11,244 nucleotides of DNA from a virus. The notes below the pieces were generated by a model that worked only from the letters and a program-made list of their open reading frames with translations, was not told the DNA's origin and made no database searches. Position numbers and translations under genes: made by a program. Positions 697-7,983 of this stretch are shown piece after piece. Numbering within the stretch: the stretch's first letter is position 1; each line of letters starts with the position of its first letter. The stretch lies in UHGV virus genome UHGV-0101776; one strand, written 5' to 3'.

Positions 697-778
697 AAAG
701 AATATACTTAATAATATATACAGTAAGAACCATTAGTAACGATAACCCTGCTATCAGCTCAGTGATGTAGATGGTCAT
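674..778 (-). CDS. Small hydrophobic peptide (34 aa), possibly translationally coupled to the helicase
   Basis: The ATG overlaps the helicase TGA stop (TGATG) and is preceded by a strong SD, AAAGGAGG, 7 nt upstream. Product MTIYITELIAGLSLLMVLTVYIIKYILYANKKTN has a single predicted TM helix. Overlaps the HNH start by 23 nt. Below the ORF-track size cutoff. Confidence 0.3.
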   Translation of the reverse strand: MTIYITELIAGLSLLMVLTVYIIKYILYANKKTN

Positions 779-2214
779 CAGAATCCTCCTTTCTTCTTGG
801 ATTGCGGTTCCTCGCGTTCACGGCGGCGCATTTCAGCGGACTGTTGGTCTGTGTCATAAATAGCGCCATTTGCCTGAATGCAATACACCGTGCCGGTATT
901 GCCATGACGATTGAGACGAAGGATTAGTTCGGTTTCACCAGGTGGAACACTGTCATCAAAAGCACCTTCACGATGGATCCCCACCCAATAATCGCAATCC
1001 TGTTCAATCTGCCCTGTATCTCGTGAGTCACTTGGTAATGGGCGTTTATTGGTTCTGCTTTCCAGTGCGCGGTTAAGCTGCGTCAGAAGCACAACAACGC
1101 AATCAAGCTCTTTGGCAAGGTTCTTCAGTCCTTTGGTGATCATGCCGTAAGCAAGGTCGTTGCGATCGGCCTTCTCAGCAGTCATTAGTGTCAGGTAATC
1201 GACCAGAATCATGCCAACACATCCTTTTTCTCGCTTGATTCGACGACTTTCGCTGACGATTTGAGCCAGAGATAATCCCGGCGTGTCGTCGATGTAAAGC
1301 AGGTCGATTTCACTCAAGCGATTGGCTGTTTCGATCGCCCTGTTGAAGTCACCATCGTAATCACCCTGATAGCCGTCATCAGCGTCATTTGTCGCCGGAA
1401 GGTAAAAAATATTCGGGTTAACACCTGACTTCTGTCCTACCAGTTTTTCCAGTATCTGGTCACCGGGCATTTCAAGGCTGAACATCAGAGCGGGCTTTTT
1501 CTCATGCACTGCGCAGTTGATTGCCATCTGGCTGTATAGCGTCGTTTTCCCCATCTTAGGGCGAGCGCCAATGACAAACAGAGAGCCTTTCACCAGACCT
1601 TTCGGTGACAGCATCCTGTCCAGCGATGGGATCCCTGTGCTCATTCCTCGTTGTTCGCCTGACGGGTCAAATCGCTTCTCAAGGTCGCTAACCCAGTCTT
1701 CCATGACCTCACCAAATGAGCGAAGGCCGCGACGCGATCCGGTTTTTGCATGGTCTGTCAGTTGCGTAAAAATCGCCTGAATAGCTTCGTACTTCTGCGT
1801 CGCAGTCATTCCGTTGCGGGAATAGAGCAATTCCGTCGCTTCAGTCATGCGGTTGATGGCGTAGCGTTCCATTGCGGTTTCACGAACCTGCATTGCATAG
1901 GCAACGATGTTTGCTGCGCTTGGCGTGTTCTTTGCGATCTCAGCGATATAAGCAAAACCGCCAACAGACGCCGTTAACGATTTACGCTCCAGTTCATCGA
2001 AAAGCGTCAGGCCATCTACTGGCTTTTGCTCCCGGTGCATTCTGGTTATTTCTTCGAAAAGGATTTTGTGTGGTCGGCTGTAAAATGAATCAGGCTTCAG
2101 CATCGCCAGAACTTTCTGGACGCGCTCACTGCTGTCATCATCCAGAAGCAATCCACCAATCACCGCCTGCTCTGCCTCGATGCTATGGGGCGGCGCATAA
2201 AAATTATCGGTCAT
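778..2214 (-). CDS. DnaB-family replicative DNA helicase (phage P22 gene 12-type)
   Basis: Walker A GARPKMGKTTL, Walker B-like ILVDYLTLM and the DnaB-like LLTQLNR motif. The ATG at 2214 overlaps the upstream initiator stop (ATGACCGATAA) with GAGG upstream. The ORF track's longer form starts at a GTG at 2229; the ATG is preferred. Confidence 0.88.
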   Translation of the reverse strand: MTDNFYAPPHSIEAEQAVIGGLLLDDDSSERVQKVLAMLKPDSFYSRPHKILFEEITRMHREQKPVDGLTLFDELERKSLTASVGGFAYIAEIAKNTPSAANIVAYAMQVRETAMERYAINRMTEATELLYSRNGMTATQKYEAIQAIFTQLTDHAKTGSRRGLRSFGEVMEDWVSDLEKRFDPSGEQRGMSTGIPSLDRMLSPKGLVKGSLFVIGARPKMGKTTLYSQMAINCAVHEKKPALMFSLEMPGDQILEKLVGQKSGVNPNIFYLPATNDADDGYQGDYDGDFNRAIETANRLSEIDLLYIDDTPGLSLAQIVSESRRIKREKGCVGMILVDYLTLMTAEKADRNDLAYGMITKGLKNLAKELDCVVVLLTQLNRALESRTNKRPLPSDSRDTGQIEQDCDYWVGIHREGAFDDSVPPGETELILRLNRHGNTGTVYCIQANGAIYDTDQQSAEMRRREREEPQSKKKGGF

Positions 2215-3094
2215 CGTGTTCACCCTCACGAACTTTCAGGTAGGTATTATCGTTAAGCAGGAAATCAAATCCCTTTTTGTGCCAGACGGTTCCGCGTTGA
2301 TGGTTTGGGCGCTCTTCGAACATCCATCGGCAATTTTCGCCAACGTAGCTCAAATAATTTCTCCAGTCCTGCATCGTGAACCCATGCCCGTCAAGTTGGC
2401 GTGTTATTACTCCGGCTTTGCGCCAGAACGTTCGGATCTGGTTTTTACGCTTGTCATTCAGTGCGCGGATTCTTGGCGCTTCAGGAAGGATTTCGTGGTA
2501 AGCATCGACAACATCCTGACAGCTGACGGAAGGTTTTTTCTTGTCAGACTTTTTGTCTGCTGTGGCACTCTCTAATACGTCAGTATTAGAGATATTATTT
2601 ATATTATTGTTTATGGACAACCGTTGGACAACCGTTGGACAATCTCCGCTGAGAGCCGCGCCATTACTGGTGTTTGCGTTGGACAACCGTTGGACAACCG
2701 TTGGACAATTTTTTGCCTGAAAATCGTCATATTTAACGATTGTAAACAGGCTAAATTTCTTCCCCATCGAGCAAATATTAAGCATCCCTTTCGACTCAAA
2801 AGTCCGTAATAAGCTCCGAACTTTGTTGTCGGGGATGAATGTTTCTCTGACCAGCGACGGGCGTCCAGTTATCATCTGACCGCGATCAACAGTTATCGGC
2901 CCGATATCCGTATTGACGACAGTAGATTCGTGATTAGCCTTGAGGATTAAGTGAAGCCAAAGATGTACTGCCTGAGAGTCCTTATAGAGCCTGCTGTCCA
3001 TAAACTGGCGGTGTATAGAGACATACCCCATACTGGATGCCTCCTGATGTTGTACAGGGTTATGCCTGTAATCAGCTAACTTAACGACGCCCAT
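2204..3094 (-). CDS. Phage replication initiator (lambda O-like role), origin embedded in the gene
   Basis: 296-aa ORF directly upstream of, and overlapping, the helicase gene. Strong SD AGGAG 6 nt before the ATG at 3094. Iteron repeats lie inside the central part of the gene (translated as the repeated CPTVVQRLS), the same arrangement as lambda O/ori. Conserved-looking C-terminal domain (TFWRKAG...GTVWHKKGFDFLLNDNTYLKV). Confidence 0.75.
   Translation of the reverse strand: MGVVKLADYRHNPVQHQEASSMGYVSIHRQFMDSRLYKDSQAVHLWLHLILKANHESTVVNTDIGPITVDRGQMITGRPSLVRETFIPDNKVRSLLRTFESKGMLNICSMGKKFSLFTIVKYDDFQAKNCPTVVQRLSNANTSNGAALSGDCPTVVQRLSINNNINNISNTDVLESATADKKSDKKKPSVSCQDVVDAYHEILPEAPRIRALNDKRKNQIRTFWRKAGVITRQLDGHGFTMQDWRNYLSYVGENCRWMFEERPNHQRGTVWHKKGFDFLLNDNTYLKVREGEHDDR
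2585..2708. repeat. Replication-origin iterons plus adjacent AT-rich region
   Basis: Six copies of GGACAA at 11-bp spacing (unit GGACAACCGTT) in two clusters of three, 2615-2642 and 2681-2708. The clusters are 66 bp apart (6 x 11), so all copies are in helical phase. An AT-rich stretch at 2585-2614 flanks them on the side downstream in gene orientation. Confidence 0.75.
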
Positions 3095-3242
3095 GCTTCA
3101 CTCCTGCTTTGGCTAGTCTGTAAACACCAACAAGGCGCTCTGCGAACGCCCTGTTATTTGCTGCGGCTACCACTAATCCCTCAGGTGAATCAGGGTGTCG
3201 AATCTCTTCTTTTTCCTGGTATTTCTTACGACGTTTTGTCAT
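3078..3242 (-). CDS. Small basic hypothetical protein (54 aa) between cII and the initiator gene
   Basis: ATG at 3242 preceded by AGGAG (spacing 6). Product MTKRRKKYQEKEEIRHPDSPEGLVVAAANNRAFAERLVGVYRLAKAGVKHGRR. The stop overlaps the initiator start by 17 nt. Not in the ORF track (under 60 aa). Confidence 0.4.
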
Positions 3243-3253
3243 AATTACTCCTG

Positions 3254-3330
3254 TGGATTGATCCAGTAATTCCCTCAGAATTGCATATCAATTTGCTTAG
3301 AGTCCCCGGCGGCCACCGGGGATTTTTTCT
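3254..3330 (+). ncRNA. oop: oop-like antisense RNA overlapping the cII 3' end, with intrinsic terminator
   Basis: The segment gatccagtaat...cctcagaa... ends in the hairpin ccccgg-cggcca-ccgggg plus attttttcttt (3305-3330). It closely resembles my recollection of lambda oop RNA in sequence, length (about 77 nt) and position antisense to the cII 3' end. CATAAT at 3240-3245 is a candidate -10 for Po. Confidence 0.6.
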
Positions 3331-3571
3331 TTGTGATTCCATCAAGCGCATACTTAAAAGCCCTACTAATCGGACTGATGTCTGATGCCATTCCGAAAGC
3401 ACACAAGACTGAAGCAATAAATCTCCAGTCCGTTCTGCTTATCTTCGATTCATGACAGCCAATCATCTTTGCCAGACCGCGCTGGGTAAGCGTTGACAGG
3501 TTGATGAGTAAATCTGTTTCTGCGCGATCAACGTCACGCTGGGATAGTTTGCTGTAACTTGTTTGTTCCAT
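3275..3571 (-). CDS. cII: CII-like transcriptional activator
   Basis: 98 aa, with clear similarity to lambda CII in the HTH and C-terminal parts (...KISRTDW...KKKSPVAAGDSKQIDMQF versus lambda ...QISRWKRDW...KKRPAATERSEQIQMEF). Sits immediately downstream of cro and nutR. Confidence 0.85.
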   Translation of the reverse strand: MEQTSYSKLSQRDVDRAETDLLINLSTLTQRGLAKMIGCHESKISRTDWRFIASVLCAFGMASDISPISRAFKYALDGITKKKSPVAAGDSKQIDMQF

Positions 3572-3585
3572 TTCTTATGATTTCC
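3549..3585 (+). promoter_or_regulatory. Candidate PRE establishment promoter with CII-binding repeat
   Basis: TTGC-N6-TTGT at 3549-3562 on the plus strand, inside cII codons 3-7. This is the same position as the TTGC-N6-TTGC CII site of lambda PRE. A TATGAT -10-like hexamer lies at 3577-3582. Orientation would drive transcription antisense through cro into cI. Confidence 0.5.
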
Positions 3586-3656
3586 AATAGTGAATAGCTA
3601 GTTGAAAGGTATGCGTGGAAACGCATATGGCCTTGGTTGGTCAGATATTCTGGGAT

Positions 3657-3702
3657 TCGCTTTTCAGCGACGTAGGACGAATGTCCGTTGTTACAAAGAG
3701 CG
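3657..3702 (-). promoter_or_regulatory. nutR-like site (boxA plus boxB hairpin)
   Basis: On the minus-strand transcript just after the cro stop: boxA-like CGCTCTTTG (reverse complement of 3694-3702), then after about 23 nt the hairpin UCGCU-GAAA-AGCGA (reverse complement of 3657-3670), a 5-bp stem with a GNRA-type loop like lambda boxB. Confidence 0.5.
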
Positions 3703-3709
3703 GGGTTAC

Positions 3710-3943
3710 TTATGCTGCTGATGCTCTACGCGATACGAACACCAGATTTTCCTTTTTCACAGGTTTATAACCCGTGAAATTACGAGTGGCTTCTTCGATT
3801 GCATTCGCTTTATCTGGGGAAGCTCTTCGAAACCCATATGCAATCTGATCAAGATAGCCAACTGAAGTATTCGCTAATGCGGCGAGTCGCTTCCATTCCT
3901 CACTAGAAGCCTCTTTTCGCCAGCGTAGTAGTTCATTACTCAT
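3710..3943 (-). CDS. cro: Cro-like HTH repressor
   Basis: 77-aa ORF divergent from cI across the operator region, first gene of the operon containing cII. GGAGG SD 6 nt before the ATG. HTH-like segment WKRLAALANTSVGYLDQIAYG. Confidence 0.7.
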   Translation of the reverse strand: MSNELLRWRKEASSEEWKRLAALANTSVGYLDQIAYGFRRASPDKANAIEEATRNFTGYKPVKKENLVFVSRRASAA

Positions 3944-4056
3944 TAGTGCCTCCGTTTATCACACAGAGCAACTTTACCATTTTGATAAATAAACTGCAAT
4001 GGAGATTTATCAAAATGCGTATTTATCCATTTGCTAAATAGAGGGAGAATCGTGGG
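3944..4056. promoter_or_regulatory. OR operator region with divergent promoters (PR toward cro, PRM toward cI)
   Basis: Three ATTTATC-containing operator-like sites: reverse complement of 3973-3989 (TTTATCAAAATGGTAAA), 4006-4022 (TTTATCAAAATGCGTAT) and 4022-4038 (TTTATCCATTTGCTAAA). Candidate PR on the minus strand: -35 TTGCAG (reverse complement of 3994-3999), 17-bp spacer, -10 TAAAGT (reverse complement of 3971-3976). PRM was not confidently placed. Confidence 0.7.
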
Positions 4057-4761
4057 ATGGAAAACAAAGATATTCGCAAATCGAATCTGGCGTTTTTGCT
4101 AGATGAGCATAAAAAAATCGCGGGTAACACTAATGCAAGCTTTGCCGATAAGCTTGGAGTTAGCCCTTCTCAACTCACGCAAGTCTCCGGTGAAAAAAGC
4201 ACTCGAAACATAGGGGATAAACTAGCAAGAAAATTCGAAGCCGCACTTGGGTTACCTAATGGGTGGCTTGATTTGGTACATGATGTAACACCAATTGCAT
4301 CATGCTCAGATTCTTTAACTTTTGTCGGTCAGGTAAGAAAAGGGTTAGTGCGCGTGGTTGGTGAGGCAATTCTTGGTGTTGATGGTGCCATCGAGATGAC
4401 CGAAGAGCGCGATGGGTGGCTCAAGATTTATAGCGATGATCCAGATGCCTTTGGTCTTCGTGTGAAAGGAGACAGCATGTGGCCTAGAATAAAATCAGGA
4501 GAATATGTACTCATTGAGCCTAACACCAAAGTATTCCCGGGGGATGAGGTGTTTGTCAGAACCGTTGAAGGACACAACATGATCAAGATTCTTGGCTATG
4601 ACAGAGATGGAGAATACCAATTTACAAGCATCAACCAGGACCACAGGCCAATAACGTTACCTTATCATCAAGTAGCAAAGGTGGAGTATGTGGCTGGTAT
4701 TCTGAAGCAATCTCGTCATCTGGATGACATCGAGGCAAGGGAGTGGCTGAAAAGTTTGTGA
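4057..4761 (+). CDS. cI: CI-type prophage repressor (N-terminal HTH, C-terminal S24/LexA-like autopeptidase)
   Basis: 234 aa. N-terminal HTH region; C-terminal domain with the GDSMWP serine motif typical of LexA/CI self-cleaving repressors. SD GAGGGAG upstream. Divergent from cro. Confidence 0.88.
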   Translation: MENKDIRKSNLAFLLDEHKKIAGNTNASFADKLGVSPSQLTQVSGEKSTRNIGDKLARKFEAALGLPNGWLDLVHDVTPIASCSDSLTFVGQVRKGLVRVVGEAILGVDGAIEMTEERDGWLKIYSDDPDAFGLRVKGDSMWPRIKSGEYVLIEPNTKVFPGDEVFVRTVEGHNMIKILGYDRDGEYQFTSINQDHRPITLPYHQVAKVEYVAGILKQSRHLDDIEAREWLKSL

Positions 4762-6260: not shown

Positions 6261-6313
6261 GGGATGCAATGCCGAAGCAACTCTCTCAGGAGTAGCTTCG
6301 GGATTGCATCGCC
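6261..6313 (+). promoter_or_regulatory. Long imperfect hairpin in the N leader (candidate RNase III processing or translation-control element)
   Basis: Arms gggatgcaatgccgaagc (6261-6278) and gcttcgggattgcatcgcc (6295-6313) pair over about 17 bp with one mismatch and one bulge, enclosing a 16-nt loop. Located between nutL and the N SD (GGGAGG at 6325-6330). Confidence 0.45.
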
Positions 6314-6335
6314 AGAGTTTATTCGGGAGGAATCC

Positions 6336-6608
6336 ATGTCCAGAAAAACAGAATTTAAAGGAACCGCAGCTTCTCGCCGTAGAGAGCGTCGCGCAAATCT
6401 GCAAAGTCAGGAGGCGATCAGCTCCGACAAGCTACACAGGCCAACCCCTTCACGAGTGGTCTTGCAATGCAAGCGCAAACCAGCAATGAGAGCAGAAGTG
6501 ATAACTCTGACAACGTTGACCAGAAAATATGAAGGTTCAACTTGTCTTCCGAACGTAGCTCTTTACGCGGCAGGCTACCGGAAATCAAAACAACTGACGG
6601 CGAGATGA
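6336..6608 (+). CDS. N: N-like transcription antitermination protein
   Basis: 90 aa. N-terminal arginine-rich motif ASRRRERRANLQ, matching the RRRERRA of the lambda N ARM. Positioned downstream of PL/nutL with a leader of about 185 nt. The ORF-track frame 6264..6608 extends upstream; the ATG at 6336 has the SD. Confidence 0.7.
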   Translation: MSRKTEFKGTAASRRRERRANLQSQEAISSDKLHRPTPSRVVLQCKRKPAMRAEVITLTTLTRKYEGSTCLPNVALYAAGYRKSKQLTAR

Positions 6609-7782: not shown

Positions 7783-7842
7783 ATGCATACCAATAACGCT
7801 TCATTCGAGGCGTTTTCGTTATGTATAAATAAGGAGCACACC

Positions 7843-7983
7843 ATGCAATATGCCATTGCAGGGTGGCCTGTTGCTGGCTGCCCTTCCGAATCTTTACTTG
7901 AACGAATCACACGTAAATTACGTGATGGATGGAAACGCCTTATCGACATACTTAATCAGCCAGGAGTTCCCAAAAATGGATAA
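7843..7983 (+). CDS. cIII: CIII (inhibitor of FtsH-mediated CII degradation)
   Basis: 46 aa, MQYAIAGWPVAGCPSESLLERITRKLRDGWKRLIDILNQPGVPKNG. Essentially identical to my recollection of lambda CIII over this length, but lacking the last 8 residues. AAGGAG SD 6 nt upstream. The ORF-track ORF 7783..7983 includes a spurious N-terminal extension. Confidence 0.85.
   Translation: MQYAIAGWPVAGCPSESLLERITRKLRDGWKRLIDILNQPGVPKNG

Follow-up and report, generated by a model that had tools for sequence, protein, structure and literature searches.

The 11,244-nt stretch of viral DNA analyzed here (UHGV genome UHGV-0101776; hereafter the window) carries, across the start of its cII gene, what is very probably the pRE promoter of a mosaic lambda-like prophage, orthologous to the pRE of phage lambda. 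The window represents a mosaic lambda-like (pro)phage that is inverted with respect to the usual lambda map, and positions 3549–3585 of its plus strand read TTGCTGTAACTTGTTTGTTCCATTTCTTATGATTTCC, which divides into TTGC TGTAAC TTGT TTGTTC CAT TTCT TATGAT TTCC. A sequence-only reading of this DNA had described a TTGC-N6-TTGT repeat followed by TATGAT inside the 5' end of cII, and the sequence was found to read exactly so. The same reading had given the repeat the codon positions found in lambda, with seven of the eight repeat bases conserved; both statements were borne out by an ungapped alignment with lambda anchored on the cII start codon. The pRE layout that it proposed, antisense to cro and pointing toward cI, agrees with the gene order, the strands, the offsets in lambda and the annotation of relatives.

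All elements of the candidate promoter lie on the plus strand. The promoter-distal CII tetrad, TTGC (3549–3552), stands in the register of positions −39 to −36 of lambda pRE and is invariant in 49 of 49 variants of the comparative set described below. The 6-nt spacer between the tetrads, TGTAAC (3553–3558), occupies the position of the −35 hexamer and is poor in that role, agreeing with TTGACA at two of six bases. The promoter-proximal tetrad, TTGT (3559–3562), corresponds to TTGC in lambda and phage 21; its final T, at position 3562, pairs with the first base of cII codon 4, which is therefore ACA (Thr) as opposed to GCA (Ala). The complement of the cII start codon, CAT, is found at 3569–3571, followed by the −10 hexamer TATGAT (3576–3581), which begins 13 nt past the proximal tetrad in the place of the lambda hexamer AAGTAT and matches TATAAT at five of six bases. 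The three bases before the hexamer (3573–3575) are TCT, so that a TGn extended −10 is absent, and the TTCC after it corresponds, on the other strand, to the cII ribosome-binding site. Expressed relative to cII, on its antisense strand, the CII site spans ATG+9 to ATG+22 and the −10 spans ATG−5 to ATG−10, with one tetrad covering codon 4 and the first base of codon 5, and the other covering the second and third bases of codon 7 and the first two bases of codon 8. Transcription is predicted to start at 3586–3589, a placement based on the register with the lambda pRE start, which we take to be 17 nt upstream of the cII ATG. A simple scan of 3000–4200 detected no consensus sigma-70 promoter, which is consistent with the need for an activator.

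The gene encoding the presumptive activator is the one in which the site lies. The window cII (3275–3571, minus strand), whose codons 4–8 encode the site, specifies a 98-aa protein that matches the Pfam family Phage_CII (PF05269, E = 2e-31) and shares 33% identity with lambda CII in BLASTP (E = 4e-9). The recognition helix motif S-x-I-S-R is common to the two proteins, with S42, I44, S45 and R46 invariant. A single-sequence search of the window CII against solved structures returned no match at E ≤ 0.001, and the assignment as a CII homolog thus rests on Pfam and on the BLASTP relationship to lambda CII. Next to cII lies cro (3710–3943, minus strand), an ORF that is annotated as Cro in phages 94–96% identical in DNA, and beyond it cI (4057–4761, plus strand), which contains a Peptidase_S24 domain and is annotated as CI in near-identical phages. 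The cI gene begins 476 nt downstream of the −10 hexamer on the same strand as the promoter, and the scan of 3000–4200 found no plus-strand terminator-like site between the two; the sole such site in this interval, at 3299–3326, lies upstream of the promoter.

That terminator hairpin belongs to a possible oop-like antisense RNA (3253–3333, plus strand) which overlaps the 3' end of cII and can be aligned both with lambda oop and with the part of phage HK629 that its record labels oop-like. Both sides of its stem differ from lambda with pairing retained, and a T-run follows. Rfam searches matched no oop family, and nothing at the pRE site. A 53-aa ORF (3081–3242, minus strand) is located between cII and the O-like gene, its start overlapping the would-be oop promoter region; it has no Pfam match, and the HK629 record carries a similar ORF at this place, annotated as similar to HK97 gp53. 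On the other side of cII, an apparent nutR site is located just after cro on the minus strand, with boxA CGCTCTTTG at 3702–3694 and boxB TCGCT-GAAAA-AGCGA at 3670–3657. The boxB loop, GAAAA, is that of lambda, and the nutR offsets equal those annotated in HK106. The hairpin GGTATGCGTGGAAACGCATATGG at 3609–3633, between nutR and cII, possibly belongs to the counterpart of the lambda tR1 terminator region; lambda has a different hairpin, GTATGCAAATAAATGCATAC, at the same position.

The remainder of the window is likewise of lambda-like character. An ORF at 778–2229 (minus strand) is named as a DnaB-like helicase, following the HK629 and HK620 records, and is followed by an O-like replication gene (2204–3094, minus strand). 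The latter contains 11-nt iterons, TGGACAACCGT, spaced 11 nt apart in two clusters (2614–2643 and 2680–2709), which are presumably the replication origin. The N gene (6264–6608, plus strand) was identified by its N_peptide match (E = 1e-32), and a cIII thermoregulator was identified downstream of N at 7830–7888 (plus strand; Rfam Lambda_thermo, RF01804, 88.5 bits). The DNA of the cII-cro-cI segment is 94–96% identical to that of many Escherichia phages, among them mEp506, BP-4795 and numerous Stx1 and Stx2 converting phages. For the window as a whole the best records cover only about half of the length, a pattern typical of lambdoid mosaicism.

The bare CII motif is not rarer in the window than expected by chance. 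TTGC-N6-TTGY matches once in the 11.2-kb window, with 1.59 matches expected, and at least one match was present in 168 of 200 shuffles of the window; with one mismatch allowed, TTGC-N6-TTGC matches 13 times, with 16.7 expected. These frequencies, and the location of the site within coding sequence, are what would be expected if the repeat had arisen by chance, or as a consequence of coding constraint at the CII N terminus, and no promoter existed here. We consider this very improbable. The site is the only TTGC-N6-TTGY in the window, it is placed at exactly the offset found in lambda, and it is conserved at the DNA level among relatives, which together argue that it is non-random. The composite TTGC-N6-TTG-N15-A-N3-T, which adds A2 and T6 of the −10 at the right spacing, has one match in the window where 0.21 is expected.

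Conservation was assessed in 93 sequences of the window's cII type, drawn from viral contigs, bacterial genomes, HK106 and phage 21, which comprise 49 distinct variants over the interval −40 to +150. A scan of one genome per species yielded 10 loci and supplied the divergent Tatumella and Symbiopectobacterium alleles. In all 49 variants the tetrad bases CAA and GCAA (sense strand; 4 + 3 bases) are unchanged, and the proximal tetrad has C or T as its last base. All six spacer bases vary, as do all six that separate the proximal tetrad from the ATG. The encoded peptide is correspondingly variable at codons 2–7, the N terminus being MEQTSYSK, MERTSYSK, MAQASYSK, MDNASNSK, MEHAKTRK or MEHANNSK while the tetrads remain constant in the DNA. 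When the window peptide was recoded with random synonymous codons, the site was kept with p = 0.014 (uniform codon choice) to 0.023 (window codon usage), i.e., in ~1.4–2.3% of cases, and the tetrads are thus conserved across the 49 variants beyond what the coding sequence needs.

The conserved pattern extends into the non-coding part of the region. The −10 hexamers of the relatives include TAAGAT, TACTAT, TATGAT, TAATTT, TAATAT and TTAAAT, in which T1 and T6 never change; of the 49 variants, only one lacks A2. Conservation of T1, A2 and T6 outside the coding sequence is the signature of a −10 element, and it too weighs against chance or coding constraint as the origin of the repeat. The same architecture was observed at a different codon position in Pseudomonas phage PMG1 (D3-like), where TTGC-N6-TTGC-N13-TTTAAT is found on the antisense strand of cII 33 nt into the gene (380–393 of the extracted locus). 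The PMG1 arrangement suggests that the pRE layout reaches well beyond the enterobacterial lambda-like phages.

The conserved bases could instead serve the cII mRNA, as part of its translation initiation region or as a downstream box, with no antisense promoter involved. The site does overlap codons 4–8, and the hexamer shares bases with the stretch that separates the ribosome-binding site from the ATG; moreover, going by the title of a 1984 paper by Place et al., mutations in the lambda CII binding site reportedly also affect cII translation. What is conserved, however, is a CII repeat with 10-nt periodicity accompanied by T1, A2 and T6 of a −10 element, and this pattern is not that of a generally purine-rich or unstructured stretch. 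In PMG1, where 33 nt separate it from the start codon, the pattern is distant from the initiation region. A translational role accounts for neither the CII repeat nor the PMG1 arrangement. We therefore hold a role in the cII mRNA in place of the promoter to be highly unlikely; the two roles are not mutually exclusive.

The proximal tetrad TTGT departs from the TTGC of lambda, and its distribution was followed in other phages. TTGC is present at this position in lambda, phage 21 and the Tatumella and Symbiopectobacterium prophages, and TTGA in Salmonella phage S9-5 and a Klebsiella phage. TTGC-N6-TTGT was found at the same offset as in the window in all 80 sampled P22 c1-type loci (five distinct variants), followed in each by N13 and a hexamer; P22 itself has TTGC GAGTGC TTGT at ATG+9. 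In the corresponding scan with lambda CII, all 80 loci obtained had one and the same sequence at the site, and the scan is thus uninformative on variation. TTGCN6TTGC/T sites have been accepted for the predicted PRE and PaQ promoters of phage epsilon34 (PMC2629481), and TTGCN6TTGT has been given as the site for C1 in a P22-like phage (PMC12111858). Taken together, these sequences point to a family pattern of TTGC-N6-TTGN-N13-(−10), into which the window fits, and TTGT is a normal and widespread form of the CII site, with no defect implied. Phage 21, with TTGC at its site, has a CII that does not differ from the window CII anywhere in the helix-turn-helix region, so the difference between TTGT and TTGC comes without a matching change in the recognition helix.

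The P22-type cII genes of HK630 and Cronobacter phage ENT47670 have TTGC-N6-TTGT at ATG+9, which is the lambda register, and also contain a second, perfect TTGC-N6-TTGC located 33 nt into the gene (416–429 of the extracted loci). It is this ATG+33 repeat that is annotated as the CII site in the HK630 record; it was rejected as a functional site since no plausible −10 is found at the 13-nt spacing.

The hexamer and the proximal tetrad of the window also bear on a reading in which the cI promoter works largely without CII or is activated by it only weakly, with TATGAT supporting basal antisense transcription and TTGT weakening CII binding. The window −10 matches the consensus at five of six positions, compared with three of six in lambda, one tetrad departs from TTGC, and a derivative of lambda pRE with a consensus −10 is CII-independent (PMC2613000). 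That derivative still needs TGn (PMC2613000), though, and the window has TCT in its place; further, the −35 position matches at only two of six bases, and no promoter was called in this region by the simple scan. That both tetrads are strictly conserved argues for selection on activator binding, and TTGT is used by the whole P22 c1-type clade. We regard a largely CII-independent or weakly activated promoter as improbable, and favor an ordinary CII-dependent pRE; given the good −10, some activity in the absence of CII is conceivable.

Among the promoters compared, TGn tends to accompany hexamers lacking T at −12 (lambda, P22, S9-5, Klebsiella) and tends to be missing next to those beginning with TA (window, HK106, Tatumella punctata). 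The association of TGn with the base at −12 gave a Fisher p = 0.089 over 15 distinct pRE variants, a value not corrected for their relatedness; at most, these sequences hint that TGn and the −10 hexamer compensate for each other. It is conceivable, if rather unlikely, that the window pRE is a differently tuned variant, with weaker CII binding and a −10 that is stronger for RNA polymerase. If this were so, the CII threshold for lysogeny would be shifted relative to lambda and phage 21. Evolution would then have tuned lambda-like phages through two features, the last base of the proximal tetrad and the way in which TGn is traded against the −10 hexamer.

By homology with lambda, the window pRE would be expected to bind CII, to depend on it and to start transcription at the predicted position. 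In lambda, CII translated from pR transcripts binds two tetrads that flank the −35 position (PMC4651098 and established knowledge). In the window, cII would be transcribed on the minus strand from pR after infection, and its product would bind the direct repeat TTGC-N6-TTGT at 3549–3562, which brackets the very poor −35. Bound CII would then help RNA polymerase to use the −10 TATGAT at 3576–3581, and transcription, starting near 3586–3589 on the plus strand, would run antisense through the nutR region and cro, across oR and into cI (4057–4761). The pRE transcript would thereby supply the first burst of repressor and oppose the expression of cro. Our search of the literature turned up neither a mapped start site nor an assay of CII dependence for the window's cII type, and no experimental mapping of pRE in 933W-type phages.

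On this reading the prophage retains the textbook lambda establishment circuit, in which CII acts at pRE to yield cI and anti-cro RNA. In itself this matters little past correct annotation. Comparison of the alleles could show how lambda-like phages set promoter strength and hence the frequency of lysogeny, and it takes in Shiga-toxin phages with near-identical cII regions; the picture is small, and testable.

The lambda pRE (NC_001416) reads TTGC GTTTGT TTGC ACGAAC CAT ATGT AAGTAT TTCC, with ACGAACCATATGT between the proximal tetrad and the hexamer where the window has TTGTTCCATTTCT. In an ungapped comparison anchored on the CAT, the two promoters are in register at the tetrads, the 6-nt spacer, the N13 to the hexamer and the TTCC. 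Both have a direct repeat around a poor −35, a −10 located 4 nt upstream of the cII start codon, a direction antisense through cro into cI, and a CII-family gene in the same place. They differ in the proximal tetrad (TTGT in the window, TTGC in lambda) and in the −10 region, which is TCT plus TATGAT (5/6) in the window and TGT plus AAGTAT (3/6) in lambda; lambda pRE requires its TGn extended −10, which adjoins the weak AAGTAT (PMC2613000). TGn does not, however, define the pRE class. The proteins differ too: at 33% identity, the BLASTP alignment of the window CII with lambda CII begins only at residue 16 of the window protein, and MAFFT places a 4-residue gap in the lambda CII N terminus. Because the N-terminal 15 residues, in which the site is encoded, cannot be aligned with lambda and the MAFFT alignment needs a gap, the shared register belongs to the DNA and does not stem from homology of the proteins.

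Closer counterparts are found in other lambdoid phages. The CII of HK106 (EF120461) is 93.9% identical to that of the window and its site is the identical TTGC TGTAAC TTGT, the −10 differing as TAAGAT in place of TATGAT. The HK106 record annotates a putative pRE with a −10, a −35 and a 'CII binding site at pRE', which correspond to window positions 3576–3581, 3553–3558 and 3549–3562, respectively. In the RefSeq record of HK629 (NC_019711), a 'putative coliphage lambda cII binding site' is placed at an offset identical to that in the window; all of these HK106 and HK629 annotations are marked putative. HK629 and phage 21 share the cII type of the window and differ from it in having a perfect TTGC-N6-TTGC and TGT TAATTT. 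Among the Stx phages, the CII of the EDL933 Stx phage is 96.9% identical to that of the window, and a paper whose subject is host acid-resistance genes and not pRE function (PMC4651098) describes the CII repeat of phi24B as differing by one nucleotide and occupying the lambda locations.

The P22 c1-type phages share with the window the TTGC-N6-TTGT at the same offset, the ACA (Thr) codon 4 and the N13 to the −10, and differ in that most P22-type alleles have TGn together with a weak −10 (AAGTAT or GAACAT). BLASTP returned no alignment between the window CII and P22 C1, so the shared TTGT and Thr-4 are not explained by close relatedness of the proteins. The P22 site has been quoted as TTTCN6TTGT (PMC12111858), which differs from the P22 record as read here. 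With the annotations of HK106 and HK629 and the published descriptions of such sites, the feature in the window is already known both in kind and in its specific form.
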